A stretch of DNA of 64,000 nt from positions 6,605 to 70,604 of the forward strand of contig JAICUY010000002.1 of assembly GCA_025935615.1 (NCBI GenBank), given 5' to 3'. Under the pieces are notes generated by a model. That model worked only from the letters and a program-made list of their open reading frames with translations, did no database searches and had not been told where the DNA came from. Source of the DNA: Steroidobacteraceae bacterium. Its GTDB lineage: Bacteria; Chloroflexota; Limnocylindria; QHBO01. The position numbers and the translations under genes were made by a program. Positions within the stretch are counted from its first letter, which is position 1. Each line of letters starts with the position of its first letter. This document shows positions 4,691 through 63,632 of the stretch, one piece after another.

Positions 4691-5155
4691 TCAGCCGGTC
4701 GGCAGGGGGTGGGTGAAGTCGACGATCACGGCGCCAGAGCGGACCTCGGCCGGGAAGCGCTGCAGGCCCGCCTCTGCGTCGATCGGAATACCCTCGTAGG
4801 TCCACGTCGAGCCGTCACAGTCGCGCAGCCGGTCGCCCGCGACCGCCACCTCGCAGCCGGCCACCGGACTCCAGGCGTTGACTGCCGCGACGCCGCCGGC
4901 GACCGTCTGGGAGAGGAGGACGCGCAACGCGACGCGGCGGCCGTTGGGTTGCTCGCCCGGAAGGCCATGCGACTCGTTGAGCAGCAGGCTGCGGGCGAGG
5001 GGCGTGGCCCCGACCTCGGTAGCCGGTGCGACAGCGTAGTTGGCGTCGCCACGCTCCGGCGCGAAGCTGAAGATGAGCGGGCGTACGACGAGCATCAGCG
5101 CGACGAGGACCACCAGGCCCAGCACGGCGGCGACCGCATAGCGGGCGAATGGCAT
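4691..5155 (-). CDS. Hypothetical N-terminally membrane-anchored protein
   Basis: The 154-aa ORF has an N-terminal TM segment (AVAAVLGLVVLVALMLVV). It is the last gene of a 3-gene minus-strand run and shows no recognisable catalytic motif. Confidence 0.4.
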   Translation of the reverse strand: MPFARYAVAAVLGLVVLVALMLVVRPLIFSFAPERGDANYAVAPATEVGATPLARSLLLNESHGLPGEQPNGRRVALRVLLSQTVAGGVAAVNAWSPVAGCEVAVAGDRLRDCDGSTWTYEGIPIDAEAGLQRFPAEVRSGAVIVDFTHPLPTG

Positions 5156-47270: not shown

Positions 47271-50042
47271 TTACTCGCCGAAGATCGTCAGCTGCTCGCC
47301 GCCGCGCTCGATGAGGGGGTCTAGGCCGAGCACCGGCTCGAGCCGATCCAGCCCGGCACCGGGCCGCGCCGCCAGGGCATCGAGGTGCTGCCACTTCAGG
47401 ACGTGCCAGTTCTGGCGATCCATTTCGGAACGGAGCCACGGCGAGCGCTCCAGCTTCAGGCGCAGCAGCTCGCCACGCTCCGCGGGCAGGACCAGGAAGC
47501 GCGCCTGTTGGTCGTCGCTCGGGATCTGTGCTCCACGTCGGAGCACAGCCTCCCCGACCATGGCGGTCCATTCCACCTCGAACAGGAAGACGAGTCTGCC
47601 GCGCACGTACCACAGCGCGTCGACCGCGCCGAGTGCGTCCGCCGGCGCGCGTAGGACGAGCGGGAGGTAGACGCGACGCTCCTCGTCGGCGAGTCGCTCA
47701 CCGAGCGGCGTCCCATCGATGAGCCGAGCCTGCTCGCGTTTGCTGATCCAGACCCGCAGGCCGAGGCGATGGCCGTAGTCGGCGAGCGCTGCCAGCACCC
47801 TGCCGTGATCCTCGATGCGGCCTGCCAGCTCGTCCTCGGTTCGCAGCTCTCCACGCTCGTTGACCGCCGCATAGGCGGCCAGGCAGGCACGCACCAGCTC
47901 CTCGTCCGGCGCCGCGAGCCCCGGGAAGATGGCGTAGATCCGCTCCAGGAAGGCGGCCGTGTCGAGGCGGCCGGCGGTGGACAGGATCGAGAAGGTGGCC
48001 CACTCGACCCGGTCGGCGAGCGGCGACTCCGCCAGCTCCGGCTGGCGCAGCCACCACAGCGGCCGCGCCTCGTCGCCGAGCCGCTCGAGCGTCGGATGGT
48101 CGTCGCGCCACAGCTCCTCGCGCAGGAGGCGCGCGAGCAATGCGGAGCCGGCGCGCTCCATGCGCTGGTCGCCGTCGTCGGGCGTGCCGTGTTCAGCGCC
48201 GCGCTGCAGCGCCAGCCGCCGCAGCAGGCCGCGCCGCTCGAGCTCGAGCACGACTGCCGCCGCGACCCGTGTCAGGCCTGCCGGCTCACCGCGGTCGCGC
48301 AACAGGCCGAGCGTGGCCGCCTCCATCGCCTCGGCCAGCTCCGGATAGGTGAGCCGCTCTCCTTCCGCCCCCAGTCGCAGCGGCCGCGGCTGGACGGCGT
48401 GACGCAGCCGGTCCTCGACGGACGGCTTGCGGAAATGGAGCCGCAATCCGTCGCCCGAGCGGCGCGACTCCCGCACGACCACGTCGGTCAGCTCGAGGCC
48501 GGCGGCGGCACCGGCCACTGCGAGCCCCAGCAGGCGATCGGGATCGTCACCCTCCAGGATGACCGCGAACCATCCGTCGGGCTTCAGGGTGCTCGCCGCG
48601 GATGCGACGGCGTGGCGCAGCGCAGTCGCCTCGGCTGCCTGGCTGCGGTCGATCCCCGATCCGAACAGTGGCTCCAGCCGCAGCGTCTCGGCTGCCTCGC
48701 GACCCATCAGCCAACCCGTGGCGAGGTACTCGAAGCTGAGCTCGTCGACGCTCGGCGGCGGCGCTGCCGAACCGAGGACGAGATCGACGCTTTCCGCAGG
48801 CAGGTACTGCCCGACCACCGCCGGCCGGCAACGGACCCACAGCAAATTTGCGGCGCTGACGCTGCCGAGGTCCGAGAAGTCGGTCGCAAAGCGCGCCGGG
48901 CGGCGGTCGTCGGCACCGATCGACAGCGCGGTGCGCACATCATCCACCGCCGCCTCGAACAGCTGCCAGACGTTCGCCTCGCGCTGGTAGCGCGATGCCG
49001 GCTGCCGGACGTGCCCGTTGCTGATGCGCAGCGAGGCGACGCGCCCCGGGTACCCGTTCAGCCGGCTGGCCGGGAGCAGGCATGCGGCCAGCGCAAGGCG
49101 CATGACCGCCGCCATCGGCTGGCTGCGGAACTCGGCGTCGATCTTGTTTGCAATCGTCTGCAGCGCGTACAGGTTGCGCGGCGTGAACAGCTCGAGCAGC
49201 TCATCGACGAGCTCGTGGCGGCCGTCGAGCACCGGAAAGCGCTCACGCAGCTGTGTGTAGTGCTGGCTGTGCTGCACGTCGGCGGTCGGCTGACTGATGC
49301 TCTCGGGCCGCACCGTCGATGCGTAGCGGGGACCGGCCGACAGGGCCGCGCCGGATGCGGAACCCCGGCGGCCAGGGGGTGGAGGCCCGCCCGGCTCTCC
49401 GAGCGGCTGCTCCGGCATGCCGGTCAGGCCCGTCGGCGCCGGCGGCAGGTCCTCATCGAGGTCGGCCGCGAGCTCGGGTGTGCTGCGTGGGGCGGCATCC
49501 TCGATGCCGAGCTTGGCCAGGTCGCCCTCGTCGACCGGGGCCACGCGTTCCTCGGGCCCACCAACCGACACGTCGCAGTTCGCGCAGTGGTACATCTTGC
49601 GGCCCGGCGCGTCGGCATCGCGTGGCCAGATGAACTGGTCGCCCACCACCGGTCGCCGGCACGTGCCACACCGCGTCGCGTACAGCTCCTCGATGTGCTG
49701 GCGGAGAGGCACGTCCACCCGGCGCGATCGAGCCAGCTGCTCGAACGCGGCCTGAATGGACCCCTCGTCCGGCGACGTCAGGAAGGCCTGCGCCACCAAC
49801 TGGGCAAACGGGCTTGGATCCGCCGCGACCGCCCGGAGGCCGTGCGCGGTTGCGCGGCGCGCGGTCCAGCCGGTCCCGGCCCACGGGTCGAGCACGGTGT
49901 CGCCCGCCGCGGCGAACGCATCGAGCTCGGCGTCGATCAGGTTGTCGGCGGGCGACGGAAAGTAGCGCTCGAGGAGCGCCAGGCCGGGGAGGCGTCGCGG
50001 AAGGACGACGTGATCGTGTCGCTTCCGATCAGCCTCGCGCAT
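47271..50042 (-). CDS. Large orphan protein (923 aa) with N-terminal N6/N4-DNA-methylase motif-I-like segment, CxxC..CxxC zinc ribbon and C-terminal PD-(D/E)xK-like strand
   Basis: The segment VLDPWAGTGWTARRATAHGLRAVAADPSPFAQLV resembles the VLDPFAGSGTT..GR..IGIE motif of N6_N4_Mtase. A Zn ribbon (RCGTCRRPV...HCANCD) follows. The C-terminal ..DALWYVRGRLVFLFEVEWT is PD-(D/E)xK-like. No Walker motifs are present. Composition is good across the whole length. Confidence 0.6.
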   Translation of the reverse strand: MREADRKRHDHVVLPRRLPGLALLERYFPSPADNLIDAELDAFAAAGDTVLDPWAGTGWTARRATAHGLRAVAADPSPFAQLVAQAFLTSPDEGSIQAAFEQLARSRRVDVPLRQHIEELYATRCGTCRRPVVGDQFIWPRDADAPGRKMYHCANCDVSVGGPEERVAPVDEGDLAKLGIEDAAPRSTPELAADLDEDLPPAPTGLTGMPEQPLGEPGGPPPPGRRGSASGAALSAGPRYASTVRPESISQPTADVQHSQHYTQLRERFPVLDGRHELVDELLELFTPRNLYALQTIANKIDAEFRSQPMAAVMRLALAACLLPASRLNGYPGRVASLRISNGHVRQPASRYQREANVWQLFEAAVDDVRTALSIGADDRRPARFATDFSDLGSVSAANLLWVRCRPAVVGQYLPAESVDLVLGSAAPPPSVDELSFEYLATGWLMGREAAETLRLEPLFGSGIDRSQAAEATALRHAVASAASTLKPDGWFAVILEGDDPDRLLGLAVAGAAAGLELTDVVVRESRRSGDGLRLHFRKPSVEDRLRHAVQPRPLRLGAEGERLTYPELAEAMEAATLGLLRDRGEPAGLTRVAAAVVLELERRGLLRRLALQRGAEHGTPDDGDQRMERAGSALLARLLREELWRDDHPTLERLGDEARPLWWLRQPELAESPLADRVEWATFSILSTAGRLDTAAFLERIYAIFPGLAAPDEELVRACLAAYAAVNERGELRTEDELAGRIEDHGRVLAALADYGHRLGLRVWISKREQARLIDGTPLGERLADEERRVYLPLVLRAPADALGAVDALWYVRGRLVFLFEVEWTAMVGEAVLRRGAQIPSDDQQARFLVLPAERGELLRLKLERSPWLRSEMDRQNWHVLKWQHLDALAARPGAGLDRLEPVLGLDPLIERGGEQLTIFGE

Positions 50043-50048
50043 CGGCTC

Positions 50049-50924
50049 CTACGATTCTTCGAGCAGCTCTTCCTCGAGCTCAGGCTCGGCTGAGAACTCC
50101 GGGAGCGTGGTGTCGAGCTCCTCGACTTCCTCGGACTCCTCGTCGAGCTCTTCGCTCTCCTCCTCGTCATCGTAGCGGAGCGCCGTGCCCTTCATGTACG
50201 GTCGCACGTCACCCGCGCGAGCCGCCGTGGTGCCGGGGAATGACACCTTGCCGAAGTTGGAGGGATGGCCGAAGACTTCCCGGATGATGATCCGCACGTC
50301 GTCGTTGCTGACCACGGTGATGGCGGCTTCGTAGCGATTGCCGCCCTCGACCAGCTTGACGAGGCGCGTACCGATCCGAGGCTCGACCTGTCCGATCTCG
50401 GACTGGCCGGCCATGGCGACCAGCTGCTCCCCCTCGACGCGCAACTCGACTCCGTCGCCCGGCGATAGTGGAGCCAGGACGCGAGGAGCGGCCAGGTTGA
50501 TGAGGCGGGCATGGCCCGTCTTGCCCATCTCCTCGATGAAGTGCGCCGCCGAGGCCTTCTCGGGGCGGCCGTTGGGCGCCTTGGCTCCGTGGCCGTCGGA
50601 GCGATTGGCGACGAGCACCCGCAGCCGCTCGACGTTGCGCTCGGCAATGCGGTTGGTGTTATCGCGCTCGAGCGCGTGCTCATAGGCCTCGAGCGCCTCA
50701 TCCTCGCGGCCGAGCTCGGCCAGGGCCTTACCCAGCCGGTTGTAGGTGTCGGTATCCGGTCCGAGCTCCAGCAGCTCGCGGTTGGCATCGACGGCAGCCT
50801 CCCACTCGCCGCGGGTGGCATGTCCGATCGCCGTATCGGCGAGCTGTCGGCGCTGGCGGTTGATGGTGTCGATCTCACCGAGCGTCATCAGTTCTGACGT
50901 CTCCAGTTCTGGCGCAAGTAGCAC
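50049..50924 (-). CDS. TPR-repeat protein with C-terminal poly-acidic tail, co-operonic with the 923-aa protein
   Basis: TPR-like repeats sit at the N-terminus (YNRLGKALAELGREDEALEAYEHALERD). A beta-rich middle domain is followed by the tail DDEEESEELDEESEEVEELD..EEELLEES. There is a 6-nt gap to the downstream gene. Confidence 0.55.
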   Translation of the reverse strand: MLLAPELETSELMTLGEIDTINRQRRQLADTAIGHATRGEWEAAVDANRELLELGPDTDTYNRLGKALAELGREDEALEAYEHALERDNTNRIAERNVERLRVLVANRSDGHGAKAPNGRPEKASAAHFIEEMGKTGHARLINLAAPRVLAPLSPGDGVELRVEGEQLVAMAGQSEIGQVEPRIGTRLVKLVEGGNRYEAAITVVSNDDVRIIIREVFGHPSNFGKVSFPGTTAARAGDVRPYMKGTALRYDDEEESEELDEESEEVEELDTTLPEFSAEPELEEELLEES

Positions 50925-51035
50925 GAAAGCCCCTCGACGGGTCGGTTCCCGGCGAGAGGGCGCCTTGTTGTAGCACCGCCCATCGGTGGTGTCAACGCGA
51001 TGGAAAGCGACCGAGCGCCTGCCCGCCGGAACGCG

Positions 51036-51815
51036 TCAGCCGATCTGATGCAGGAGGAGTGCCATCAACAGGCCGAGCAGGGCCAGCGCGCCGAACTCGA
51101 GCGCGACACTGCGATTGCTGCGGCCCTCGTCGAGCGCCTCGACCGCGCCACCCCACACGTAGAAGGAGAGCGCGACGACCGCGGGTGCGGCGACCCCCGG
51201 AAGGGCCAGCAGGACCAATGCCGCGCCGGCCTGTGCGACCGCCAGGCTGTGCAGCAGCGCCAGCCCGAGCGCACGGAGACCGGTGCTGCCCCGGCCTTCC
51301 GCCGCGCGCACCGCGAGCACGAAGCTGACGAGACCGATCAGCGCCAGCGGGGGCGGCCAAGTCGACTGCCCAAAGAGCCGCCAGATGCCGGCTGCTGCCA
51401 GGAAGAGGATCCCCACCAGCGCCAGGTCGAGCGTGGTGCGCGCTCCGAGTCCCACCGCGGTGCGCATCTCCAACCACAGGACGGCCCAGATCAGCACCGC
51501 CGCCAGCGGCGTCAGCAGCACGGCCGTGCCCGGCGCGAGCAGCCGGCCCGCGAGCGTCAATGACAGTGCGGTGATGGCCGGCGTCGCGTATCGCGCCAGC
51601 CCGAGCTCGGGACGCGCCGGGCCGATGAGCCGCACCGCACCGGCCCCGCCGATCGCGAGCTGCAGGCCGACCGCGACCGCCAACCACGTCCCGCCGCTGA
51701 CCCAGCCGACGGCCGCCAGCACGGCGAGCACCAGGGACAGGCCGACCACCTCCGGCCGATCGATGCGCTGGAGCAGGCGCTGCGCCCGACTGCCGCGAAG
51801 CATGCCGTCCATCAT
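51036..51815 (-). CDS. Polytopic integral membrane protein of unknown function
   Basis: At least 7 TM helices are predicted. The ATG at 51815 forms an ATGA overlap with the PolX stop, and the longer track form would overlap PolX by 67 nt. Confidence 0.5.
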   Translation of the reverse strand: MMDGMLRGSRAQRLLQRIDRPEVVGLSLVLAVLAAVGWVSGGTWLAVAVGLQLAIGGAGAVRLIGPARPELGLARYATPAITALSLTLAGRLLAPGTAVLLTPLAAVLIWAVLWLEMRTAVGLGARTTLDLALVGILFLAAAGIWRLFGQSTWPPPLALIGLVSFVLAVRAAEGRGSTGLRALGLALLHSLAVAQAGAALVLLALPGVAAPAVVALSFYVWGGAVEALDEGRSNRSVALEFGALALLGLLMALLLHQIG

Positions 51816-53566
51816 CGGACCAGCTCGAGCAGTTCGCCGACCGATCGCGTCGACAGCAGCTGGGCCGGAGTCAACCACGCGCGACGCGCCATCGAGACGG
51901 CGTAGCGCAGCTGATCGAGCTCCTCCGTCCGGTGCGCGTCGCTCGCCACGGTCAGGCGGGCGCCGGCCGCCGCCGCCGCCCGGGCCAGCGTGTCATCCAG
52001 ATCGAGGCGAGGGCTGCCGTTGATCTCGAGCGCAGTGCCGTGCTTCGCCGCCGCGTCGAAGACGCGCGGCCAGTCGAGCATCAGCGGATCGCGCCGGTTC
52101 ACGATTCGCCCGGTGGGATGCGCCAGCACGTCCACGTGCGGATTGGTGATGGCGGCCAGCGCGCGCGTGGTGAGCTGCTCGGACGGCTGTGCCCGGCCGG
52201 TATGGATGCTCGCGATGACGAGGTCGAACCGCGCCAGCAGCTCATCGGGATAGTCCAGCGTGCCGTCGGCGCGGATCTCGAGTTCGGTGCCATGGAGGAT
52301 GCGAAATGGCGCCAGCTCCGCGTTGAGCCGCGCGATCTCGGTGCGCTGCTGCTCGACGCGGTCAGGCGCCAGGCCTCGGGCTATTCCCAGCGACGGCGTG
52401 TGGTCGGTGAGAACGATCCATGCGCGTCCCACGTCTCGTGCGGCTCGGGCCATGACCTCGATGCTGTCGACGCCGTCGGTCCAATCCGAGTGGGTGTGCG
52501 TGTCGCCGCGGATGTCGTCGAGCGTGACGAGGTCGGGCAGCGTTCCCAGCGCGGCCGCCTCGATCTCGCCGGTCCCCTCGCGCAGCTCCGGTGCGATCCA
52601 CGCCAGGTCGAGGCGCTCATAGACCTCTTCCTCGGTCGCAGCCAGGAGCAACTCCCCGCTGTCGAGCACCTTGAACCCCTTCTCCGACAGCGACCAGCCG
52701 CGTGCCAGGGCACGGCCGCGGAGCGCGATGTTGTGGTCGGCGCGGCCGGTGAAATGAACGAGATGCGTGCCCCACGCCGCGGGCGGACAGAGCATGAGGT
52801 CGACCTGGGGCCCGTCACGCAGCACGATGCTCGACTTGTCCGTCCCGGCCGAAACGACATGGTCGACCTCCGCCAGGCCGTCGAGCGCTGCGATCAACGG
52901 CGCCGGATCGCTGACCGCCGCCAGCAGGTCCAGGTCGCCGATCGTAGCCCGGCGGCGGCGCAGCGAGCCTGCCGGCTCGATCGACACGACGCCGGCGGTG
53001 TTCCGCAGCCGTGCGAGCAGCGAGCCGACCAGCTCGTCCGCCTCGTGGAGCAGCAACCGCGTGCTGCGTCGCTCGATGCGGCCGATGCCGGCCAGGATGT
53101 TCTCCTCGGTGCGCGCCGAGAGGCCCTTGAGCGAACGCAGCTGGCCACCTTCCGCGGCCGCCCGAAGCGCCTCGACCGAGTCGATGCGCAGCTCGTCGTG
53201 CAGCTGCTTGACGGTGCGCGGGCCGACGCCCGGCACGCGCAGCATGTCGAGCAGCCCGACGGGCACCTGGGCACGCAAGCGGTCGTGGTACTCGAGACGG
53301 CCCGTCTCGGCGAGCTCGGCCAGCTTGGCGCCGATGGCCGCCCCCGCGCCCGGAATCTTCGGCGGCTCGCCACGGCGGTAGAGGGCCGCCACGTCATCGG
53401 GATAGCGCTCGATCGCGTCAGCCACGCGCCGGTAGGCGACCGCCTTGTACACGACCTCGCCCAGGATCTCGAGCGTGTCGCCGATCTCGTTGAAGATGCG
53501 CGCCAGCTCGGAGTTGCTGAGCACGCCGGGCTCGCCACTGCGCGGCGCGGCACGAGGTCGAGGCAT
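51812..53566 (-). CDS. DNA polymerase X family protein with C-terminal PHP phosphoesterase domain
   Basis: An HhH region (LSNSELARIFNEIGDTLEILGE) and the pol-beta nucleotidyltransferase motif GSLRRRRATIGDLDLL are present. The PHP motif GDTHTHSDWTDG is also present. The start is the ATG at 53566, with a TTG alternative at 53587. Confidence 0.85.
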   Translation of the reverse strand: MPRPRAAPRSGEPGVLSNSELARIFNEIGDTLEILGEVVYKAVAYRRVADAIERYPDDVAALYRRGEPPKIPGAGAAIGAKLAELAETGRLEYHDRLRAQVPVGLLDMLRVPGVGPRTVKQLHDELRIDSVEALRAAAEGGQLRSLKGLSARTEENILAGIGRIERRSTRLLLHEADELVGSLLARLRNTAGVVSIEPAGSLRRRRATIGDLDLLAAVSDPAPLIAALDGLAEVDHVVSAGTDKSSIVLRDGPQVDLMLCPPAAWGTHLVHFTGRADHNIALRGRALARGWSLSEKGFKVLDSGELLLAATEEEVYERLDLAWIAPELREGTGEIEAAALGTLPDLVTLDDIRGDTHTHSDWTDGVDSIEVMARAARDVGRAWIVLTDHTPSLGIARGLAPDRVEQQRTEIARLNAELAPFRILHGTELEIRADGTLDYPDELLARFDLVIASIHTGRAQPSEQLTTRALAAITNPHVDVLAHPTGRIVNRRDPLMLDWPRVFDAAAKHGTALEINGSPRLDLDDTLARAAAAAGARLTVASDAHRTEELDQLRYAVSMARRAWLTPAQLLSTRSVGELLELVR

Positions 53567-53626
53567 CTGCGCAGATTCTAGAGACAAGCGAAGGGCCGCC
53601 CCCTGTGTGGGAGCGGCCCGTATCGG

Positions 53627-53797
53627 TCAGCTCTGTTCAGGCTGACGCATCCGGCTGCGTCTGGTGCGTGGCAGGGCGAGGCCGAAGATTCTGCCCTGAC
53701 GACGGCGGCGGGAGGTTGCAGCGACGCGTCGGTTACGCGCGTCGTCGAGCAGCTCCTGCTGACGCAGCTCGGCCTGCATCTCCCAGAAGCTGGTCAT
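53627..53797 (-). CDS. Small basic hypothetical protein (56 aa) with a strong Shine-Dalgarno
   Basis: AAGGAGG lies 7 nt upstream of the ATG. The protein is MTSFWEMQAELRQQELLDDARNRRVAATSRRRRQGRIFGLALPRTRRSRMRQPEQS. Its C-terminal half is Arg-rich. I find no family match. Confidence 0.4.
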   Translation of the reverse strand: MTSFWEMQAELRQQELLDDARNRRVAATSRRRRQGRIFGLALPRTRRSRMRQPEQS

Positions 53798-53866
53798 ATG
53801 CATGCCTCCTTGGTGTTCAGATGTCGAGTCGCGGTGCTCCTGTAAAACCGCGCCGGCTGTCGACAC

Positions 53867-54035
53867 CGACCGCGGCGCCCGCCATGGCCACGGCCAGGAC
53901 GATCGCCAGGATCACGAAGGTCACCATCGGTTCGCTCCTTCCGCGCGTGTAACTCGTAGATGTGCTTTGACTGGTTACATGCCAATCCTAGGCGGATGGC
54001 CGTAACTTGTCAAGCGGTATATACTGGTTACAGTT
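53867..54035. promoter_or_regulatory. AT-richer divergent promoter region with a 10-bp direct repeat ACTGGTTACA (twice) and TTGACT / TATATACT hexamers
   Basis: This is the only clearly lower-GC stretch in the window. The repeats lie at about 53958 and 54022. The two copies are TTGACTGGTTACA and TATACTGGTTACAG. Confidence 0.3.
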
Positions 54036-54665
54036 ATGAGCCTGAACCACGAGAGCCTTCCCGAGCCGAACGCGGCCGGCGAGCTCTTCGTCGATTTCGC
54101 CAACACGCTGGAGTACGACCGCGGAGAGGCAATCGACTCGGTGCCTGAGCCGGATGCGCTCCTCACCTGGCTGCGCGAACGCGACCTGATCAGTGACCGC
54201 GGACGTGCGACCGAGAGCGCTCGTCTGCGCCGCGACCCGCAGGAGGCGGCTCGGCGGCTCGAGCGCTTCGGCCACCTGCGGCAGCTCCTGCACGATGTCG
54301 CCGAGTCGGTCGGGCGCTCCGGCCATCCGTCGAAGCGCCAGGTGCGCGAGCTGAACCACATCCTGCGGCACGGGCTCCACTACCACGAGCTTCGGCTCGA
54401 CAGCGACGGGACGCGCTACGCGTTCGCCCAGGTCGGCGACCGCCTGGATCAGGCGCGAGCCACCATCGCCAGCTCGCTCGCCCATTTCCTGGCCGACGAC
54501 GACGCCTCTCGACTGCGCGCCTGCGCCAATCCGGCCTGCCGGCTCGTCTTCGTCGATCATTCGCCCACCGGCCGGCGGCGCTGGTGCGACATGCGCACCT
54601 GCGGCAACCAGGCAAAGGTCGCGCGTCACCGTGCTCGGGCGCGGGAGAGCGCGGAGCACGGGTAG
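54036..54665 (+). CDS. ABATE + CGNR zinc-finger domain putative stress-responsive regulator
   Basis: The C-terminal sequence CANPACRLVFVDHSPTGRRRWCDMRTCGNQAKVARHR matches the CGNR zinc-finger signature. Confidence 0.8.
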   Translation: MSLNHESLPEPNAAGELFVDFANTLEYDRGEAIDSVPEPDALLTWLRERDLISDRGRATESARLRRDPQEAARRLERFGHLRQLLHDVAESVGRSGHPSKRQVRELNHILRHGLHYHELRLDSDGTRYAFAQVGDRLDQARATIASSLAHFLADDDASRLRACANPACRLVFVDHSPTGRRRWCDMRTCGNQAKVARHRARARESAEHG

Positions 54666-54886
54666 AATGCGCGGTGCGCCGGCCCAGCCGGCGACCGCGA
54701 TCGAATCCGTAGCGAGGCAACGCGCGACCAACGTGGACGCCGGACCCAGTAGACGCAATCAGCGCGCCCTCGGCGGACGACCGGAGCGCGAGGTGATCAT
54801 CTAGCGTCGCAGTCGACGCAGCCACTTCGCGACCGCCGACCACCCGCTCACGGCGCAGGAGCCCGATCGAGCGAGGTGGTCGTTCC

Positions 54887-56155
54887 ATGCTCTTCCTGAG
54901 CCAGATCCTCGGCAAGCCGGTCCAGGACCGGCACGGCGAGCCGTTCGGCAAGGTGCGCGACCTGATCGTGGCGCTCGGCGAGAAATACCCGCCCGTCACC
55001 GGGCTCGTCGTCGGCGTGGCCAGCGGCCGAGACATCTTCCTGCCTTGGTCGGACGTCGAGGCAGTCGACGGCTCAGGGGCGCGGCTGCGCAGCTCGAGCA
55101 TCAACATCGCCGCATTCCGGCAGCGGCCCAACGAGATCCGAGTCTGGCTCGACCTGCAGGACAAGCAGATCGTCGACGTCGAGGGACGCAAGATCGTGCG
55201 GGTCAACGACATCCAGCTCGCGCCCGTTCGCGGCCGGCTGCGGCTGGTGGCCGTCGACGTGGGGCTGGCCGGCATCCTGCGCCGGCTCGGCCTCTCCGGT
55301 CCCGGCGAGCGCCTGGCGCGCGCGCTGGGGATCGAGGTCGCCAACTACATCGAGTGGGAGGACGTCGATCCGGTGGAGTCGAGCGTCAGCTCGCTCAAGC
55401 TGCGCGTCCCGCACCAGGCCCTGTCGACCCTGCACCCGGCGGACGTGGCCCACATCGTCGAGCAGCTCGCCCCTCGTGACCGCACCGGCATCCTCGCCGC
55501 GCTCGATGACGAGCGGGCAGCCGATGTCATGGAGGAGCTCGACGCCGAGGACCAGGTCGACGTGCTGGAAGCGCTGCCGCCCGAGCGCGCCGCCGACATC
55601 CTGGAGGAGATGGGTCCCGACGAGGCAGCCGACCTGATGGCCGATCTCTCCGAGGAGCGCCAGAACGAGCTGCTGAGCCTCATGCAGCCGGAAGAGGCGG
55701 AGGAAGTCCGCGAGCTGCTCGCGTACGGCGAGGAGACGGCCGGCGGGCTGATGACGACCGACTTCATCACCGTCTCGCCCGACGAGACGGCCCAGGACGT
55801 GATCGACCGGCTGCGGGAGCTCGCTCCCCCATCCGACCGCACCTATTACCTCTATGTGACCGATGCCGGCGGCGTGCTCGAGGGGACGGTCACGCTGCGC
55901 GGACTCATCGTGGCGCGGCCGGAGACGGCCGTGCGCGAGTTCATGCGCGGCGATCCGATCTCGGTCGGCGCCGACGTCGACGCCGAGCAGGTCGGCGCGG
56001 CGATCGCCCGCTACAACCTGCTCGCACTGCCGGTGGTCGACGATGCGGGCGTGCTGCTCGGCATCGTGACGGTGGACGACGCCTTCGAGCGAGCGTTGGG
56101 TGAGGGCTGGCGGCGACGCCTGCCGGAGATCTTCGAGCGGGCCGAGGAGCGGTGA
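54887..56155 (+). CDS. Standalone MgtE cytoplasmic module with PRC-barrel, MgtE_N and tandem CBS domains but no transmembrane pore
   Basis: A PRC-barrel-like N-terminus (FLSQILGKPVQDRHGEPFGKVRDLIV) is followed by the acidic MgtE_N helical bundle (DVMEELDAEDQVDVLEALPPERAADILEEMGPDEAADLMADL). Two CBS domains come next. The sequence has no hydrophobic TM segment. The stop overlaps the GTG start of the next gene (GTGA). Confidence 0.8.
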   Translation: MLFLSQILGKPVQDRHGEPFGKVRDLIVALGEKYPPVTGLVVGVASGRDIFLPWSDVEAVDGSGARLRSSSINIAAFRQRPNEIRVWLDLQDKQIVDVEGRKIVRVNDIQLAPVRGRLRLVAVDVGLAGILRRLGLSGPGERLARALGIEVANYIEWEDVDPVESSVSSLKLRVPHQALSTLHPADVAHIVEQLAPRDRTGILAALDDERAADVMEELDAEDQVDVLEALPPERAADILEEMGPDEAADLMADLSEERQNELLSLMQPEEAEEVRELLAYGEETAGGLMTTDFITVSPDETAQDVIDRLRELAPPSDRTYYLYVTDAGGVLEGTVTLRGLIVARPETAVREFMRGDPISVGADVDAEQVGAAIARYNLLALPVVDDAGVLLGIVTVDDAFERALGEGWRRRLPEIFERAEER

Positions 56156-57459
56156 GCCGGCTCGCGATTCCACGCCCCGTCCGGCGCGCTCAGCGCGCGG
56201 TTCGCGAGCGCCTGCCGAACTTCCGGGTGCATCGCTCCGGCGTGCTCGCCTTCCTGGGGGTGCTGGGGCCAGGGCTCATCGCCGGACTGGCGGGCAACGA
56301 TGCGGGCGGCATCCTGACCTACAGCGTCCTCGGCGCCGAGACCGGGCTCAGCCTGTTGTGGATCCTGCCCATCACGACGCTGATGCTCATCGTGGTGCTC
56401 GAGATGGCCGCGCGCATGGGCGCCGTCTCGGGACAGGGGCTGGGCGATCTCATCCGGGACGACTTCGGCATCCGCTGGACCCTGTTCGCCATGGTCGTGC
56501 TGCTGGTCGCCAACGGCTCGAACATTGCCGCCGAGTTCGCCGGCGCCGCGGCCGCGCTCGAGATCTTCGATGTGCCGCGCTGGATCACCGTACCGGTCGT
56601 CGCGGCGGGCATCTGGGCGCTGGTCGTGTTCGGATCGTATCGGCTCGTCGAGCGCGTCTTCCTGAGCGTGGCGGTGGTCTTCCTTGCCTACATCGTCAGC
56701 GCTTTCATGGCAGGCCCCGCCTGGGGAGACGTCGGGCGCGCGTTGGTGTCGCCGTCGCTGAACTTCGAGCCGAACGTGCTGCTGCTGATGGTCGCCACGG
56801 TCGGCACCACCGTGACGCCCTACATGTTCTTCTACCTGCAGTCGTCAGTGGCCGATAAGGGGCTCGGGCCGGAGGAGCTCGGCTATGAGCGGGCCGATGC
56901 AGTCCTCGGCGCTATCTGGACGAACGTCATCGCCCTGTTCATCGTGGTCGTCACTGCCGTGACGCTGTTCGGCGTGGGCGTGGAGCTCACGACGGCTGAC
57001 CAGGCGGCGCGCGCGCTGGCGCCGATCGCCGGCAACTTCGCCGAGGCGCTCTTCGCCTTCGGGCTGTTCGGCGCGTCGGTCCTGGCGGCCACCGTCATGC
57101 CGCTCACGACCAGCTACACGGTCTGCGAGTCGTTCGGATGGGAATCGGGCCTCTCGCGCCGCTTCAGCGAGGCGCCGGTGTTCATGGGCCTCTATACCGC
57201 GCTGATCGTGATCGGCGCGCTGGTCGTGCTGGTGCCCGGTATCCCGCTGACCGGGCTGATCATCGTCAGCCAGAACTTGAACGGCATCCTGCTGCCGATC
57301 ATCCTGGTCTTCATGCTGCGCCTCGTGAACAACTCGCGGATCATGGGCGAGCACGTCAACCCGTGGTGGCTGAACGTCGTCGCATGGGCCCTGACCGGCC
57401 TGGTGATCGCCCTGACCCTGGTCCTCTTCGGCGCCACGCTGCTCGACTGGCTCACCTGA
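56152..57459 (+). CDS. NRAMP (SLC11)-related transporter with non-canonical metal-binding residues
   Basis: The protein has 11-12 TM helices of NRAMP topology. TM1 reads AGLAGNDAGGIL where canonical NRAMPs have DPGN. TM6 reads GTTVTPYMF where they have GAxxMPHN, so the soft Met and the His are both absent. Confidence 0.85.
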   Translation: MSRLAIPRPVRRAQRAVRERLPNFRVHRSGVLAFLGVLGPGLIAGLAGNDAGGILTYSVLGAETGLSLLWILPITTLMLIVVLEMAARMGAVSGQGLGDLIRDDFGIRWTLFAMVVLLVANGSNIAAEFAGAAAALEIFDVPRWITVPVVAAGIWALVVFGSYRLVERVFLSVAVVFLAYIVSAFMAGPAWGDVGRALVSPSLNFEPNVLLLMVATVGTTVTPYMFFYLQSSVADKGLGPEELGYERADAVLGAIWTNVIALFIVVVTAVTLFGVGVELTTADQAARALAPIAGNFAEALFAFGLFGASVLAATVMPLTTSYTVCESFGWESGLSRRFSEAPVFMGLYTALIVIGALVVLVPGIPLTGLIIVSQNLNGILLPIILVFMLRLVNNSRIMGEHVNPWWLNVVAWALTGLVIALTLVLFGATLLDWLT

Positions 57460-57647
57460 GCGGCCGCTCGTTGAGGTCCCGATTCACCCGTAAATGTGAA
57501 CCAGCACGGACGACGGATGACGCGCGGTTTCGCCCAGTTGTGAATGTGGGGCGACCCGGTCTTCGTGGTCGTGAACTTCGGCACGGCTCCTGTCGGCCCG
57601 CGTTGCCATCGCGAGCGAGATCACGAGAGCGGCGGCACGCGAGCTGA

Positions 57648-58622
57648 TCAGGCGCCGATCGGATGCCAGACCGTCTTGGTCTCGACGAACTGGCCGATGA
57701 GATACGGCGATTGGGCAGCGTCGGCCAGCCAGTCGTAGCGCTGCAGGCCACCGGACGGTGGCCGCACCAGGCGCTTCACGTTCTCGACGCCGGCGTCCTC
57801 GACCGCGGCCGCCTCGGATGGGGCAACGCCGAACGCATCGAGCGCGTTCACGTCCATGTGGGCAGCCAGCGCCGGCACGATCTCGCGGCGGAGCCCGGTG
57901 ACCACGTTGACGACGCCACCCGGCACATCGGACGTGGCGAGCACCTCGGTCAACGTCACCACGGGGAGCGGCCGGGTCTCGGATGCGACGACGACCGCCG
58001 TGTTGCCTGACACGATGACCGGCGCCAGGCGGCTCACCAGTCCCAGCAGCGACGACTCCTCGGGCGCGATGACGCCGACCACGCCGGTCGGCTCCGGCAC
58101 GCTGAAGTTGAAGTACGGGCCGTTGACTGGGTTGACCGAACCGATCACCTGGCTGAACTTGTCGGCCCAGCCCGCGTACCAGACCCAGCGGTCGATGGCC
58201 GCGTCAACCTCGCGCGTCGCGCGGCGGCGTGAGACGCCCTGCGCAGCGGCGACCTCGGCCACGAACTGCTCGCGCCGGCCCTCCATCAGCTCGGCGATGC
58301 GGTACAGGATCTGCGATCGGTTGTAGGCCGTCTTGGCCGCCCAGCCGGGCAGCGCCTTGCGCGCGGCGCGCACCGCCTCGCGAATGTCCTTGCGCGTGCC
58401 GCGGCTGGCGTTGGCCAGCAGCCGGCCGCGTGCGTCGAAGACCTCGTACGACCGCCCCGACTCGGTACGCGGGAAGGCGCCGCCGATGTACAGCTTGTAG
58501 GTCTTGCGCACCTCGACCCGCTCGCTGGCCGCACCATTGCGCGAGGTCGCCAGCGGCTGCATCGGTCTGTCGTCCAGCACCGATGCGCGCGTGCGGCGCG
58601 TGGTTGCGGTGCGCGGGCTCAT
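57648..58622 (-). CDS. Truncated aldehyde-dehydrogenase-family paralog lacking the catalytic Cys domain
   Basis: The 324-aa ORF aligns to ALDH N-terminal and cofactor-binding regions (KLYIGGAF.., PWNFP-like GPYFNFSVPEP, GNTAVV). It ends before the catalytic Cys region. It overlaps the full ALDH gene by 4 nt. Confidence 0.6.
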   Translation of the reverse strand: MSPRTATTRRTRASVLDDRPMQPLATSRNGAASERVEVRKTYKLYIGGAFPRTESGRSYEVFDARGRLLANASRGTRKDIREAVRAARKALPGWAAKTAYNRSQILYRIAELMEGRREQFVAEVAAAQGVSRRRATREVDAAIDRWVWYAGWADKFSQVIGSVNPVNGPYFNFSVPEPTGVVGVIAPEESSLLGLVSRLAPVIVSGNTAVVVASETRPLPVVTLTEVLATSDVPGGVVNVVTGLRREIVPALAAHMDVNALDAFGVAPSEAAAVEDAGVENVKRLVRPPSGGLQRYDWLADAAQSPYLIGQFVETKTVWHPIGA

Positions 58623-60127
58623 GCGTCGAGCCGCACGTAGGCGGCGAGCCCGTGAAGGCCGCCCTCGCGGCCGTAGCCCGACTCCTTGTAGCCGCCGAAG
58701 GGGGAGGTCGGATCAAATCGGTTGAAGGTGTTCGCCCACACCACGCCGGCGCGCATGGCGGCCACCATCTTGAAGATACGGCTGCCCTTCTCGGTCCATA
58801 CCCCGGCCGACAGCCCGTAGGGCGTGTTGTTCGCCTTCTCGATCGCCTCCTCGGGCGTGCGGAAGGTGAGCACCGACAGCACCGGGCCGAAGATCTCCTC
58901 CTGGGCGATGCGATGCGACTGCGAGACGCCGGTGAACAGCGTTGGGCGGAAGAAGAAGCCGCGATCGGGTAGCTGACAGTCGGGCTGGAAGATCTCGGCA
59001 CCCTCCTCAATCCCCGACTCGACCAGCTCCTGGACCTTGGCCAGCTGGCCGGCCGAGTTGATGGCGCCGACATCGGTGTTCTTGTCGAGCGGATCGCCGA
59101 CCCGAAGCGTCGAGAGGCGTGCCTTGAGCTTGTCGAGCAGCGGCTCGTAGACGCTCTCCTGCACAAAGAGGCGCGAGCCTGCGCAGCACACCTCGCCCTG
59201 GTTGAAGTAGATGCCGTTGATGATGCCCTCGATGGCCTGGTCGATCGGCGCGTCGTCGAAGACGATGTTGGCGGCCTTGCCCCCGAGCTCGAGGGTCAGC
59301 TTCTTGTCCGACCCCGCCACCGCCCGCGCGATCATCTTGCCGACCGCGGTCGAGCCGGTGAAGGCGACCTTGTTGACCTCGGGATGCCGCACGAGCTCCA
59401 TCCCGATCTCGCCAGGCCCGGTGATGATGTTGACCACACCCGGCGGAAGCTCCGCCTGGCGGACGACGTCAGCGAACAGGTACGCGGTCAACGGGGTGGT
59501 GCTGGCCGGCTTGAGGACCACCGTGTTGCCGCAGGCCAGTGCCGGGGCGATCTTCCAGGCCAGCATCATCAGCGGGAAATTCCACGGGATGATCTGCGCC
59601 GCGACACCGAGCGAGCGCGGCTGCCGGTTCGGGAAGGCATAGTCGAGCTTGTCGGCCCAGCCGGCGTAGTAGAAGAAGTGAGCTGCGGCAAGTGGGACGT
59701 CGACGTCGCGGCTCTCCTTGATCGGCTTGCCGGAGTTCAGCGTCTCAACCACCGCGAATTCGCGGCTGCGCTCCTGGATGATTCGCGCAATCCGATACAG
59801 GTACTTGGCCCGCTCGCTGCCCGGCAGCTTCGACCAGGTGTTGTGATACGCGCCCCGCGCCACCGTCACCGCGCGATCGACGTCCTTGGCCGATGCGCGC
59901 GCCACGCGCGCGAGCACCTCCTCGGTGGCCGGGTTGATGACCTCGAAGGTGCGCTTCGGCTTCGATGGGGCGAACTCGTTGCCAATGAACAGGCCGTACT
60001 CCGGCTTGATCTGGACGTGGTCGGTCGACTCGGGAGCCGACGCGTACTCCCACGGAACGTGGGCGCCGGCGGCGAGGCCCCACGACGCCGGCGCAGGGCG
60101 GGTCTCAGGCTTCTTGGTCATCGTCAT
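58619..60127 (-). CDS. Aldehyde dehydrogenase (NAD(P)+)
   Basis: The 502-aa ORF contains ELGGKAANIVF, the catalytic Cys motif FNQGEVCCAGSRLFV and the NAD-binding motifs GSTAVG and PWNFP. Confidence 0.9.
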   Translation of the reverse strand: MTMTKKPETRPAPASWGLAAGAHVPWEYASAPESTDHVQIKPEYGLFIGNEFAPSKPKRTFEVINPATEEVLARVARASAKDVDRAVTVARGAYHNTWSKLPGSERAKYLYRIARIIQERSREFAVVETLNSGKPIKESRDVDVPLAAAHFFYYAGWADKLDYAFPNRQPRSLGVAAQIIPWNFPLMMLAWKIAPALACGNTVVLKPASTTPLTAYLFADVVRQAELPPGVVNIITGPGEIGMELVRHPEVNKVAFTGSTAVGKMIARAVAGSDKKLTLELGGKAANIVFDDAPIDQAIEGIINGIYFNQGEVCCAGSRLFVQESVYEPLLDKLKARLSTLRVGDPLDKNTDVGAINSAGQLAKVQELVESGIEEGAEIFQPDCQLPDRGFFFRPTLFTGVSQSHRIAQEEIFGPVLSVLTFRTPEEAIEKANNTPYGLSAGVWTEKGSRIFKMVAAMRAGVVWANTFNRFDPTSPFGGYKESGYGREGGLHGLAAYVRLDA

Positions 60128-60630
60128 GTGATGCCGATTATGGCATTCATGATCTCGCTCACCACTTCGGGCGCGGGTCGATTGGCCTCGACCACGATTC
60201 CCGGCTCGTCCGGTCCGAGTGGCTCGAGCGTCTGCAGCTGGCTGTCGAGCAGGCTGACCGGCATGTAGTGACCGCTGCGGTACCGCATGCGTTCGGCGAG
60301 CACGGCGCGTGGGGCGACGAGATGGACGAACCAGACGGACGGGTGGCCGCGCCGCAGCAGCTGGCGGTAGGCGCGCCGCAGTGCCGAGCAGGTGACGAGG
60401 GCGCTCTCGCCGGCCTGCTCGCGGTCACCGATCCAGGCCGCGATCGATTCGAGCCATGGCCAGCGGTCGGCATCGTCGAGCGCATGTCCGGCAGCCATCT
60501 TTTCGACGTTCGCAGTGGGATGGAACTCGTCGCCCTCCGCGGTTGGCCATCCCAGGCGGTCGACGAGCGCCTGCATGACGGTTGTCTTGCCGGTGCCGGT
60601 GACCCCCATGATGACGACGGTCGTCGTCAT
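60124..60630 (-). CDS. gntK: Gluconokinase (GntK family P-loop kinase)
   Basis: The sequence VVIMGVTGTGKTTVMQALVDRLGWPTAEGDEFHPTANVEKMAAGHALDDADRWPWL matches the GntK pattern. It overlaps the ALDH start by 4 nt. Confidence 0.75.
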   Translation of the reverse strand: MTTTVVIMGVTGTGKTTVMQALVDRLGWPTAEGDEFHPTANVEKMAAGHALDDADRWPWLESIAAWIGDREQAGESALVTCSALRRAYRQLLRRGHPSVWFVHLVAPRAVLAERMRYRSGHYMPVSLLDSQLQTLEPLGPDEPGIVVEANRPAPEVVSEIMNAIIGIT

Positions 60631-63600
60631 GCGTCGGCGGCGTCGAGCTCGAGCTGTCGCAGGAACCGATTTCGGTGAAAGTCCGCCCAGCGCCGAAGGC
60701 CGCGGGCCTCCGCCGCTGCGGCGATGCGTTCGGCGATGGCTCTGGCCGTCGCGAAATCACCACGCACCGCGTGCACCTCGGCGTCGACGCGGTCAATCTC
60801 CTCAGTGACCGGCTGCATCACGAGACCCACCATCCGGGCCCGAGCCCGGTCGAGGAGCAGGCTCGCCGCAGCTGCCTCACCGATATGGGCTCGGGCAAGT
60901 GCCTCGGCGATGTCCAGCGTCACCTGATCGGCGATGTCGTCCTCGCGGCCCATCGAACGTGCCCGGGCAACGATCGAAAGTGCTCGCCGTGCGTCACCAA
61001 TGCGGCTGAGGGCGAGCGCCCAGTAGGCCATCTCATTGACCAGGACCCGGCTTTCGCCCATCCGCTCCGAGGCCTCAGCCTTCTCGCGGTTGAGGCGCTC
61101 GGTTTCGGCGAGATCACCTTCGATGTATGCCATCAGCGCCAGGAAGTGGAGCGCGCCCCGTGCCGCGCCGTGGGAGCCGGTCTGCAGGAGCAGATCCGCC
61201 TGGTGCATCAGCCCTTCTCGGACCTGATCAGCGCTCGCGCTCCCGGCCAGGTATTCGAGCGGAAGCCCCAGGGCGTTCAACGAAGCCAGCATCAGCGGCC
61301 CGGCGTTCGTTTCGAGATCTCGTCGCAGGTCAGCCACCAGGCGGCGCTGGTCGTCGACCGCCGTGCCGGCGAACGACGCCGTGATCACTGTCATCATGGC
61401 CAGGTGCATCTGCTGAAACGGACGATGTCCGCCGCGTAGCAGCTCGAACGCGCGGCGATAGGCGGCATGGGCGCGATCGGCGCGACACTCGAGCCATTCC
61501 GCTGTCGCAATCGCCCTGTCGCAGCGCACGATGCTCATGACGTCACCGCGCTCGACCAACGCCGGTCGCATCGCTTCGAGCTCGTTGACGAGCTCATCGG
61601 CTGATCGTCCCTGGCCCAGTGGATCGATGCCCACCTCGATCGCCAGCGCGGTTGTTCGATCTGTCTCGCTGCCGGCGCGCAGCTCGCCCATCAATGGCGG
61701 GATCTCGGGCAGCAGGCCGGCCGCGTCGAGGGCGATCGCCAAGTCGGGGACGAGCGAGCGGCGCACATCGCCTTCGGGGAGCAGGTCGTGCGCGCGACGG
61801 AGCAGGCTCACCGCCGAGTGCGTGTCACCGCGCGCGACGGCTGCGCGCCCGGCGCGACTGAGCCGCTCTGCCGCCTGATTCGAGAGCCGCTCGAGCAACG
61901 CCGAATCGGCGCCGAGGTCGGCCTGGTAGCGCGCCGCGCGCTCGTAGTGGTAGCCGACGATCTCGTCCTGCTCGAAGAGGTCACCGTGCCCGTCCAGCCA
62001 CTGCGCAAAACGCTCATGCAGCTCCGCGCGGACGGCTTTGGGCAGTGACTCGTAGGCCGTGTCGCGGATCAGCAGGTGGCGGAAGCGGAATGCGTCATCG
62101 CCCGGGATCTGCGAGCGATCGGGACGAACCAGCTCCTTGCGGACCAGGGCCAGCAGGTCGGCCGGGATCTGCTCGCGTGATGGTGCGGCCACGAGGGCGG
62201 TCACCGAGCCGCGGTGGAAGATCTTACCCTCGACCGCGCCACGCTCGATCACACTGCGCTCGTGATCGTTGAGCGCGTCGAGCCGAGCCTGCAGCACGGC
62301 GTGGATGGTCGGCGGGACGCGCAGCTCGCCGGACGTCTCGCGCGCCAGAGCCGCCATCTCTTCGAGGAACAGTGGGTTGCCATCGGCCATCTCGATGATG
62401 CGCGTGCGGGTCGCATCGGTCAGGTCGAGGCCCTCGAGCAGCGAATCCGCCAAGCCGGCCGCATCAGTCTCAGCCAGCGGCTCGAGCAGGATGGCAGTCG
62501 CGTTTGGCTTGCCGCCGCCCCATCCCGGGCGCACGTCGACGAGCTCGGGACGACCGATGCAGAGGACGAAGATGGGCGCGTCGCGCACCCAGTCGACGAT
62601 GTGCTCGATGAGGTCGAACAGCGGTGCCTCGGCCCACTGCAGGTCGTCGAAGACGAGCACCAGCGGCCGCTCCTCGGCGATGCCTTCGAGCAGGGCCCGC
62701 GTGGCGAGCTGGGTGTCGGCGGGTGAGGTGCGGATCGCGGCCTCTGGATCGATTCCAAGCTGGACCAGCATCTCGACCAGCGGCCAGTAGGTGATCCCTT
62801 CCCCGTACGACAGGGCGCGGCCGCGCGCCACGGTCACGTCCTCCAGCCCGTCGAGGAAGTCCGCCACGAGACGCGACTTGCCCACGCCGGCCGGCCCGAT
62901 CAGGGTGAACAGGCGGCTGCTGCGTCCGGCCACGCCGTCGTCGAAATCGCCGCGCAGGCGCGCCCGTTCTCGCTCGCGTCCCACCATCGGACGGTCCAGC
63001 TGGCGACTGATCCCGGGCGCGGCCGCCTCGAGCCGGGTGAGCCGATGCGCCATGACCGCATCAGGCTTTCCCTTCAACTGCAGCTCGACCGGATCCGTCT
63101 CGACCGCATCGCGGACGAGGCGAGCCGTCTCGGCACCGAGCAGGATCTCGCCTGCGCCGGCCGCCTGCTCCAGCCGAGCCGCCACGTTGACCGCATCGCC
63201 GGTGATGAGGGTGTCGCCCTCGCCGGCGACGACCTCCCCGGTGTTGATGCCGATCCGGGCATCGAGCTCGAGCTGGTGGACGGTGTCGCGCAGCTCGACC
63301 GCGGCGCGCACCGCGCGCAGCGCATCGTCCTCGGTCGCGACCGGGATGCCGAAGACGGCCATGACCGCATCCCCGACGAACTTCTCGACGGTGCCGCCAT
63401 GCCGCTCGAGCACGGCGCGAGCCGTCTCGTAGTACCGGCGCATCGTGCCGCGCAGCGTCTCGGGATCCGTCCGGTCACCCAGAGCGGTCGAGCCGGTCAG
63501 GTCGCAGAACAGGACGGTGACCACCTTGCGCACCTCGCGCGGGGCCGCGGCGGGCGTCAGCGGCGATCCGCAGCTCGGGCAGAAGGCGAACTCGGAGGGG

Positions 63601-63632
63601 CTCTCGTGACCGCAGCTCGGGCAGGTGATCAC
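60627..63632 (-). CDS. Multidomain signalling protein: N-terminal Zn-ribbon, class III adenylate/guanylate cyclase domain, STAND/AAA ATPase and TPR-like C-terminal region
   Basis: The N-terminal CPSCGHE..CPSCG ribbon is followed by the cyclase homology domain (VTVLFCDLTGSTAL..FVGDAVMAVFG). The P-loop is LIGPAGVGKSRL. Helical repeats follow. The gene starts on GTG, 9 nt after the ogt stop. Confidence 0.85.
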   Translation of the reverse strand: MITCPSCGHESPSEFAFCPSCGSPLTPAAAPREVRKVVTVLFCDLTGSTALGDRTDPETLRGTMRRYYETARAVLERHGGTVEKFVGDAVMAVFGIPVATEDDALRAVRAAVELRDTVHQLELDARIGINTGEVVAGEGDTLITGDAVNVAARLEQAAGAGEILLGAETARLVRDAVETDPVELQLKGKPDAVMAHRLTRLEAAAPGISRQLDRPMVGRERERARLRGDFDDGVAGRSSRLFTLIGPAGVGKSRLVADFLDGLEDVTVARGRALSYGEGITYWPLVEMLVQLGIDPEAAIRTSPADTQLATRALLEGIAEERPLVLVFDDLQWAEAPLFDLIEHIVDWVRDAPIFVLCIGRPELVDVRPGWGGGKPNATAILLEPLAETDAAGLADSLLEGLDLTDATRTRIIEMADGNPLFLEEMAALARETSGELRVPPTIHAVLQARLDALNDHERSVIERGAVEGKIFHRGSVTALVAAPSREQIPADLLALVRKELVRPDRSQIPGDDAFRFRHLLIRDTAYESLPKAVRAELHERFAQWLDGHGDLFEQDEIVGYHYERAARYQADLGADSALLERLSNQAAERLSRAGRAAVARGDTHSAVSLLRRAHDLLPEGDVRRSLVPDLAIALDAAGLLPEIPPLMGELRAGSETDRTTALAIEVGIDPLGQGRSADELVNELEAMRPALVERGDVMSIVRCDRAIATAEWLECRADRAHAAYRRAFELLRGGHRPFQQMHLAMMTVITASFAGTAVDDQRRLVADLRRDLETNAGPLMLASLNALGLPLEYLAGSASADQVREGLMHQADLLLQTGSHGAARGALHFLALMAYIEGDLAETERLNREKAEASERMGESRVLVNEMAYWALALSRIGDARRALSIVARARSMGREDDIADQVTLDIAEALARAHIGEAAAASLLLDRARARMVGLVMQPVTEEIDRVDAEVHAVRGDFATARAIAERIAAAAEARGLRRWADFHRNRFLRQLELDAADA

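Follow-up and report, generated by a model that had tools for sequence, protein, structure and literature searches.

We analysed a 64,000-nucleotide stretch of DNA (hereafter the window) from contig JAICUY010000002.1 of an uncultured Chloroflexota lineage and found, at 54887 to 57459 on its forward strand, two overlapping open reading frames (ORFs). With very little doubt, they form an operon in which an NRMT (NRAMP-related magnesium transporter), ORF B, is preceded by a conserved MgtE-like partner, ORF A. This operon type is already published and common, and the window pair is an ordinary, well-conserved copy of it. Indeed, Shin et al. (2014, PLoS Genet 10:e1004429, PMC4072509) named the NrmT group and reported that most NrmT genes adjoin a gene for a homologue of the MgtE cytoplasmic domain; they speculated on two roles for this partner, feedback regulation from the cytoplasm and metal chaperoning. 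As regards the function of the pair, we lean slightly towards uptake of Mg2+ (and Mn2+) by ORF B that is throttled in trans by ORF A, acting as a cytoplasmic Mg2+ sensor.

A preliminary description of the window had read the pair as a two-subunit uptake system with an architecture for which no described system was known. This last statement is wrong in view of the 2014 report, while the idea of a regulation in trans is plausible from the sequences and coincides with the published speculation. The two ORFs do lie where they had been placed, and Pfam, the TIGR00400 model, hydropathy and AlphaFold2 agree that ORF A combines PRC, MgtE_N and CBS domains and has no pore. The overlap of stop and start codons, the place of the transporter in the NRMT clade and the tight linkage of the pair in other genomes were likewise borne out. 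In the literature searched, only Shin et al. discuss the partner, and no later paper does. The structural paper on EleNRMT, the NRMT of Eggerthella lenta, makes no mention of it (PMC8806188), and in a 2026 review of bacterial Mg2+ transporters the term NrmT is absent and NRAMP appears only as host NRAMP1.

The NRMT transporter and its operon

ORF B (56152 to 57459, + strand, 435 amino acids) matches the Pfam Nramp family (PF01566, E=3.8e-88) over 356 of the 357 profile positions. It aligns with EleNRMT (7qia) at E=4.9e-109, with 46% identity and no gap over 396 residues; matches to canonical Nramp/MntH structures lie at about 1e-20 to 1e-27 (best 1.5e-27), and with the MntH NCBIfam model ORF B reaches 124 bits, below the cut-off of 430. 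The site motif of transmembrane helix 1 (TM1), GNDAGG, is encoded at 56293-56310 and that of TM6, TTVTPY, at 56806-56823, both on the + strand. In a HMMER alignment to DraNramp, D50, A51, G52 and G53 of ORF B fall on the D, P, G and N of DPGN, and T219, T222 and Y224 on the A, M and H of A-T-V-M-P-H. By this alignment, the replacements of DPGN by GNDAGG and of AxxMPH by TTVTPY pointed out in the preliminary description sit at the true TM1 and TM6 positions, with T222 at the canonical Met and Y224 at the canonical His position.

From translation and alignment, the EleNRMT residues D55, G58, E133, T224 and Q379 (chain numbering of the alignment, which is that of PMC8806188) are all conserved in ORF B, as D50, G53, E128, T219 and Q374. 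In EleNRMT, transport is severely impaired when D55 or Q379 is mutated, and with T224A no Mg2+ transport can be detected (PMC8806188). The same study describes D-x-G-G in place of D-P-G-N at TM1 as an NRMT-defining feature, and reports that EleNRMT has Trp and Asn where proton-coupled Nramps have two histidines on alpha-6b. Both histidines are also absent from ORF B, where these positions are Y224 and L229. With EleNRMT (7qia/7qic; Ramanadane et al. 2022, eLife 11:e74589), the TM1 motif NDAGG is identical, and the only site differences are found at the canonical Met position (Ala in EleNRMT, T222 in ORF B) and at the canonical His position (Trp in EleNRMT, Y224 in ORF B). The canonical Nramp/MntH proteins (DraNramp, ScaDMT, EcoDMT) share with ORF B the SLC11/LeuT fold, the Pfam family, the TM1 Asp and the TM10 Gln, but they differ from it by DPGN instead of DAGG, by A-x-x-M-P-H instead of T-x-x-T-P-Y and by the proton-pathway histidines that ORF B has lost. 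Judged by all the sequence-level features of the clade, ORF B is an NRMT-clade SLC11 carrier.

All our clade counts are based on a set of 80 NRMT loci from species-representative genomes, labelled by L-numbers; NRMT-like genes occur in at least 595 species-level genomes. At least eight phyla are represented among the 80 loci, which were taken from Chloroflexota, Syntrophales, Bacillota (with Clostridium puniceum among them), Actinomycetota, Acidobacteriota, Myxococcota, Bacteroidota and candidate phyla. The TM1 motif NDAGG is found in 79 of the 80 loci. TM6 is of the TTxTPY type in 37 loci, the window included, of the TTIAPW type in 38 and intermediate in five. As these two types split the clade about equally, the site of ORF B is a standard NRMT site, one of two types, and is not peculiar to this gene. 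Thus, what the preliminary description called a remodelled metal site is indeed changed with respect to canonical NRAMPs, but it is nothing special among NRMTs.

The TM6 type of ORF B is also that of the Bacillota loci with an M-box riboswitch (RF00380). Many but not all operons of this type have an M-box, which is no obligatory feature: it lies directly upstream of the pair (107-154 bits) in only five of the 78 loci scanned, L078 and L079 being left out. Four of these loci (among L044, L053, L063, L066 and L077) are Bacillota and one is Actinomycetota, and all four Bacillota are of the TTxTPY type, like ORF B. M-box-controlled Clostridium NrmT genes were shown to rescue a Mg2+-transport-deficient B. 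subtilis strain (PMC4072509), and EleNRMT carries Mn2+ besides Mg2+ (PMC8806188). Given the homology to EleNRMT and the M-box association of its site type, ORF B is likely a Mg2+ importer that works without proton coupling and accepts Mn2+ as an alternative.

ORF A and ORF B are joined by a 4-nucleotide overlap, GTGA (56152-56155). At this junction (56144 to 56155, + strand), GAGGAG at 56144-56149 precedes the GTG start of ORF B (56152-56154) and the TGA stop of ORF A (56153-56155), from which we infer translational coupling. When ORF A was used as a tblastn query against the 80 NRMT loci, a homologue was found immediately upstream and on the same strand in 74 of them, with a median gap of 19 nucleotides and, in 15 of the 74, the identical 4-nucleotide overlap. 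Most partners are 410-424 amino acids long and align from residue 1. Apparent fusions of about 850 amino acids in L034, L036 and L074 were rejected: each consists of two genes, which either lie some 30 bp from each other or overlap in different frames, and which appeared fused because the tblastn alignments ran through the stop codon. Flanking synteny is limited to the nine closest relatives; thus, the functional unit is the two-gene operon. Neither gene is a chance feature, since hundreds of homologues more than 80% identical to ORF A and ORF B share the same architecture.

The operons described by Shin et al. (Ca_c0685 and Ca_c3329 of C. acetobutylicum, ACP2976/ACP2977 of A. capsulatum) have the same two genes, in the same order and with the same proposed role, as the window pair. 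They differ from it by their hosts, that of the window belonging to an uncultured Chloroflexota lineage, and by the M-box, which is lacking in the window and likewise in the A. capsulatum pair. Furthermore, the C. acetobutylicum partner is split, while that of the window is a single gene.

The MgtE-like partner and its Mg2+ ligands

ORF A (54887 to 56155, + strand, 422 amino acids) is composed of a PRC module, an MgtE_N domain, a CBS pair and a basic tail, all encoded on the + strand. The PRC-barrel domain (residues 2-61, 54890 to 55069; Pfam PF05239, E=4e-11) adopts a beta barrel in the AlphaFold2 model, with a predicted local distance difference test (pLDDT) score of mostly 66-92. The MgtE_N helical domain (residues 182-283, 55430 to 55735; Pfam E=2.3e-28), which contains D213, D245 and D249, is strongly acidic (32 D+E versus 6 K+R). 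It is followed by the CBS pair (residues 288-402, 55748 to 56092; Pfam E=1e-18) with N377, D398 and E401. The C-terminal tail, ALGEGWRRRLPEIFERAEER (56093 to 56152), stands at the position of the acidic plug helix of MgtE, and AlphaFold2 predicts a helix at its residues 408-415.

The TIGR00400 mgtE model, which has 450 positions and a cut-off of 232.75 bits, matches ORF A at profile positions 24-249 only, that is, over the cytoplasmic half, with 167 bits and hence below the cut-off. The five-helix pore domain of MgtE was not found: the match ends at position 249, and neither a hydrophobic segment in the protein nor a transmembrane helix in its AlphaFold2 model (mean pLDDT 69.7) could be seen. 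Using Kyte-Doolittle means over 19-residue windows and a threshold of 1.6, only two windows of ORF A exceed the threshold, both within the CBS fold and with a maximum of 2.0, against 101 windows in ORF B. A fold search with ORF A gave the MgtE cytoplasmic domains 8gpv and 2yvy as best matches (E about 1e-18), and its residues 172-401 align to the MgtE N domain and CBS pair at E=7.7e-41 with 38% identity. In the absence of a pore domain, a hydrophobic segment and a transmembrane helix, ORF A is not an MgtE channel but a cytoplasmic module without a pore.

Between the PRC barrel and MgtE_N, the segment of residues 88-135 (55148 to 55291), with the motif DKQxxDxxGxxxxRVND...VDxGxxGxxRRxG, is among the most conserved parts of the protein, with positions kept at 90% or more across 70 partners. 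It may be a second PRC-like barrel; AlphaFold2 predicts beta strands at residues 95-122, with low confidence. We did not assign residues 62-181 as such, the second PRC match being weak (E=0.018, below the Pfam cut-off) and the model confidence low. In all of the seven diverse partners scanned, MgtE_N starts at residue 176-189 with a PRC-barrel region before it, so that the N-terminal PRC module of the family comprises about 180 amino acids. The partners of L044 (Clostridium) and L052 (Acidobacteriota) have the domain layout of ORF A.

Two further loci show other forms of this layout. In the M-box operon of the Actinomycetota UBA6100 (L077:2114-3976, + strand), the partner is 620 amino acids long as called, with PRC, MgtE_N and CBS in the first 410 residues or so, followed at the C-terminus by some 200 additional residues that match no Pfam family. 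In the actinomycetotal L042, the NRMT gene (3814-5112) has no MgtE-like partner upstream, but a 191-amino-acid ORF lies just downstream (L042:5257-5832, + strand). It resembles only the PRC module (BLASTP E=1e-7 to residues 1-181 of ORF A; Pfam PRC E=4.9e-5) and contains the KQIxDxEG...RVxD motif. This single case hints at the PRC module alone as the NRMT-associated element.

To follow the Mg2+ ligands of T. thermophilus MgtE (TtMgtE), we used past residue 250 what we take to be its sequence, checked against the residue names in the paper of Maruyama et al. (2018). The ligands listed for TtMgtE (PMC5882242) were counted in an alignment of 70 partners. The Mg6 ligand D95 is Asp in 70 of 70 (D249 in ORF A) and the Mg7 ligand E59 is D/E in 69 (D213). 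For Mg4, whose ligands D91 and D247 correspond to D245 and D398, about 52 of the partners have D/D: Asp stands at the first position in 52 partners and at the second in 53, the others having Ser (18) and Asn (17), respectively. For Mg5, D250 is D/E in 62 partners (E401 in ORF A), and D226 is mostly Asn (N377). Finally, the Mg2/Mg3 ligands E258 and D259 are replaced by Lys/Arg in most partners, and by R409 and R410/R411 in ORF A. By this alignment, the ligands of Mg4, Mg6 and Mg7 are kept in ORF A, those of Mg5 half kept, and those of Mg2 and Mg3 lost. Compared with TtMgtE (2yvx/2zy9; 2yvy), ORF A thus has in common the N domain, the CBS pair and the Mg4, Mg6 and Mg7 ligands, but it lacks the five-helix pore, carries the extra PRC module of about 180 amino acids and shows the changes of E258/D259 to Arg and of D226 to Asn.

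In MgtE, the plug helix connects the sensor with the pore of the channel itself and bears the Mg2 and Mg3 ligands. Their loss here may mean that this region has been re-purposed for a different target. Chloroflexota and several further lineages share the conserved tail motif W-[KR]-[KR]-R-L-P. Partners of the Syntrophales type have the tail FKNLLEVVAPxLGK in place of the basic WKKRLP motif, and the Mg4-substituted forms appear to belong to them, which suggests a subfamily with one Mg2+ site lost and a different C-terminal element. We found no description of the PRC module, of the retained Mg4/Mg6/Mg7 ligands or of the basic tail in the literature searched, nor any paper there with both "PRC-barrel" and "MgtE".

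A proposed regulation in trans and its alternatives

In the mechanism that we propose, ORF A and ORF B constitute a bicistronic NrmT/NRMT operon of the Chloroflexota ('Candidatus Limnocylindria'), whose transporter most likely imports Mg2+, and can carry Mn2+ too, with no proton coupling. In MgtE, the sensor keeps its own pore shut through the acidic plug helix. ORF A would probably close up at high cytoplasmic Mg2+ as MgtE does, since the N-domain/CBS architecture and the acidic ligands of the interface are kept. It would dock on the NRMT or on the adjoining membrane surface through its PRC module and/or its basic W-R-R-R-L-P tail and, once docked, it would slow transport when Mg2+ is replete. 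That the two proteins touch each other and that the regulation runs in this direction is what we infer here, and we stop just short of endorsing the gating step taken alone, in which ORF A would sense Mg2+ via the sites of the N/CBS interface and down-regulate ORF B by direct contact. In the absence of an M-box, gating by ORF A would be the sole Mg2+-responsive control seen at the locus.

Several observations weigh against this mechanism. No MgtE-like partner is present within 4 kb of the NRMT in five of the 79 loci that could be assessed (the remaining locus has no upstream sequence), and the transporter is thus not strictly partner-dependent. Among the 80 loci, there is no fusion of sensor and transporter, and hence no sign there of direct contact. 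The Clostridium transporters needed no partner in order to function (PMC4072509) and, in the only experiment on a partner, co-expression of ACP2976 and ACP2977 from A. capsulatum did not improve Mg2+ rescue (PMC4072509). This negative result is weak evidence and does not refute the mechanism, because a negative regulator is not expected to improve rescue at low Mg2+. In the same study, ACP2977 was found to be mainly a Mn2+ transporter, which fully rescued a Mn2+-transport mutant and corrected the Mg2+ defect only at low-millimolar Mg2+ (PMC4072509); substrate preference therefore varies within the clade. Finally, sensing by ORF A cannot be identical to that of MgtE, because the Mg2/Mg3 ligands have been lost and D226 is replaced by Asn, as it is in most partners.

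The properties of ACP2977, an NRMT-group protein with an MgtE-like neighbour and no M-box, would suit a mainly Mn2+ or mixed divalent-cation importer whose partner answers Mn2+ and not Mg2+. The Mn2+ transport by EleNRMT and the lack of an M-box in the window point in the same direction. We nevertheless consider this explanation unlikely, as the TM6 type of ORF B is that of all four M-box Bacillota operons, while the Acidobacteriota locus L052 is of the other type, TTIAPW. In addition, ORF A retains the hard-oxygen Mg2+ ligands of MgtE, and no His- or Cys-rich site of a Mn2+/Fe2+ sensor was seen in it, although no systematic search for one was made. We give a similarly low probability to a partner that does not gate the transporter, being instead a metal chaperone or buffer, or a sensor signalling elsewhere (e.g. 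through the PRC barrel to RNA or proteins), and linked to the NRMT by co-expression only. RimM and other proteins of RNA metabolism contain PRC barrels, and ORF A has a faint RimM match (E=0.052, NCBIfam). Such a role would also be consistent with L042, where only a PRC-like ORF stands beside the NRMT, with the chaperone option raised by Shin et al. and with the function of the transporters without partner in heterologous hosts (PMC4072509). Against it, a fixed gene order, strict adjacency and short or overlapping junctions over at least eight phyla are the usual mark of co-acting subunits, and the domains retained in the partner are those that carry out Mg2+-dependent gating in MgtE.

A match restricted to the cytoplasmic half of the mgtE model, such as that of ORF A, could also be expected of a decaying, functionless remnant of a full MgtE, but this reading has next to no probability. 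Indeed, ORF A is intact and full length, its homologues are 81-100% identical over 422 amino acids in more than 100 independent metagenome or genome sequences and, across phyla, identity is still 33-60% with the family-specific N-terminal module and tail kept. A remnant would not be so maintained, and these data effectively refute this explanation.

Surroundings of the operon and meaning of the partner

No M-box is present in any Chloroflexota or Syntrophales locus scanned, nor in the window. Upstream of ORF A, no riboswitch was found (RF00380 and Rfam searched at E<=1 in 50000-60000), and the whole window (1-64000) has no Rfam match at the gathering threshold and no tRNA, rRNA or riboswitch. 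Consensus scans for promoters and terminators around the operon gave nothing useful. In four Smithella/Syntrophaceae loci, a PyrR binding-site RNA (RF00515, just over the gathering score) was detected on the minus strand (L038:2511-2613, L039:2502-2606, L051:2458-2567 and L067:2430-2537). These sites lie immediately upstream of the sensor gene but on the opposite strand; they belong to a divergent pyrimidine operon and are unrelated to the pair.

In the window, a PolX-type polymerase gene in divergent orientation and a co-oriented CGNR gene lie upstream of the operon, while the aldehyde dehydrogenase genes downstream run towards it. The CGNR gene (54036-54665, + strand) ends 221 nucleotides upstream of ORF A and encodes an ABATE and CGNR zinc-finger protein, a putative stress-induced transcription regulator. 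We rejected it as a dedicated regulator: it is syntenic, with the PolX and aldehyde dehydrogenase genes, only in the nine closest relatives and is absent from distant pairs. A link specific to the pair is therefore improbable. The tandem genes of the aldehyde dehydrogenase family (57648-58622 and 58619-60127, both on the - strand) overlap by 4 nucleotides. The product of the downstream gene (324 amino acids) covers only Aldedh profile positions 9-232 of 461, in the first half of the profile, and is a truncated paralogue, yet it is conserved with 76-87% identity in related genomes. Further downstream, the gene at 60627-63632 (- strand) encodes a predicted large signalling ATPase with a cyclase domain; its product of 1001 amino acids combines a zinc ribbon at the N-terminus with the catalytic domain of an adenylate/guanylate cyclase and an AAA_16 ATPase domain.

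As a discovery, the window pair carries little weight, its operon type having been in the literature since 2014 and being common. Its remaining value lies in the putative role of the partner and in the candidate adaptor features described here, the PRC module and the basic tail. The MgtE Mg2+ ligands D213, D245, D249 and D398 offer handles for experiment, as do the basic tail and the PRC module, which may serve in docking. A regulation at the protein level should show most easily in lineages that, like that of the window, lack a riboswitch. Tentatively, and with more reserve than for the mechanism itself, we can propose that the MgtE-type sensor is a portable module that was re-targeted to a LeuT-fold SLC11 carrier, with the PRC module and the W-[KR]-[KR]-R-L-P tail as adaptors. 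If true, an MgtE sensor would here, for the first time, be seen to gate a secondary transporter in trans.

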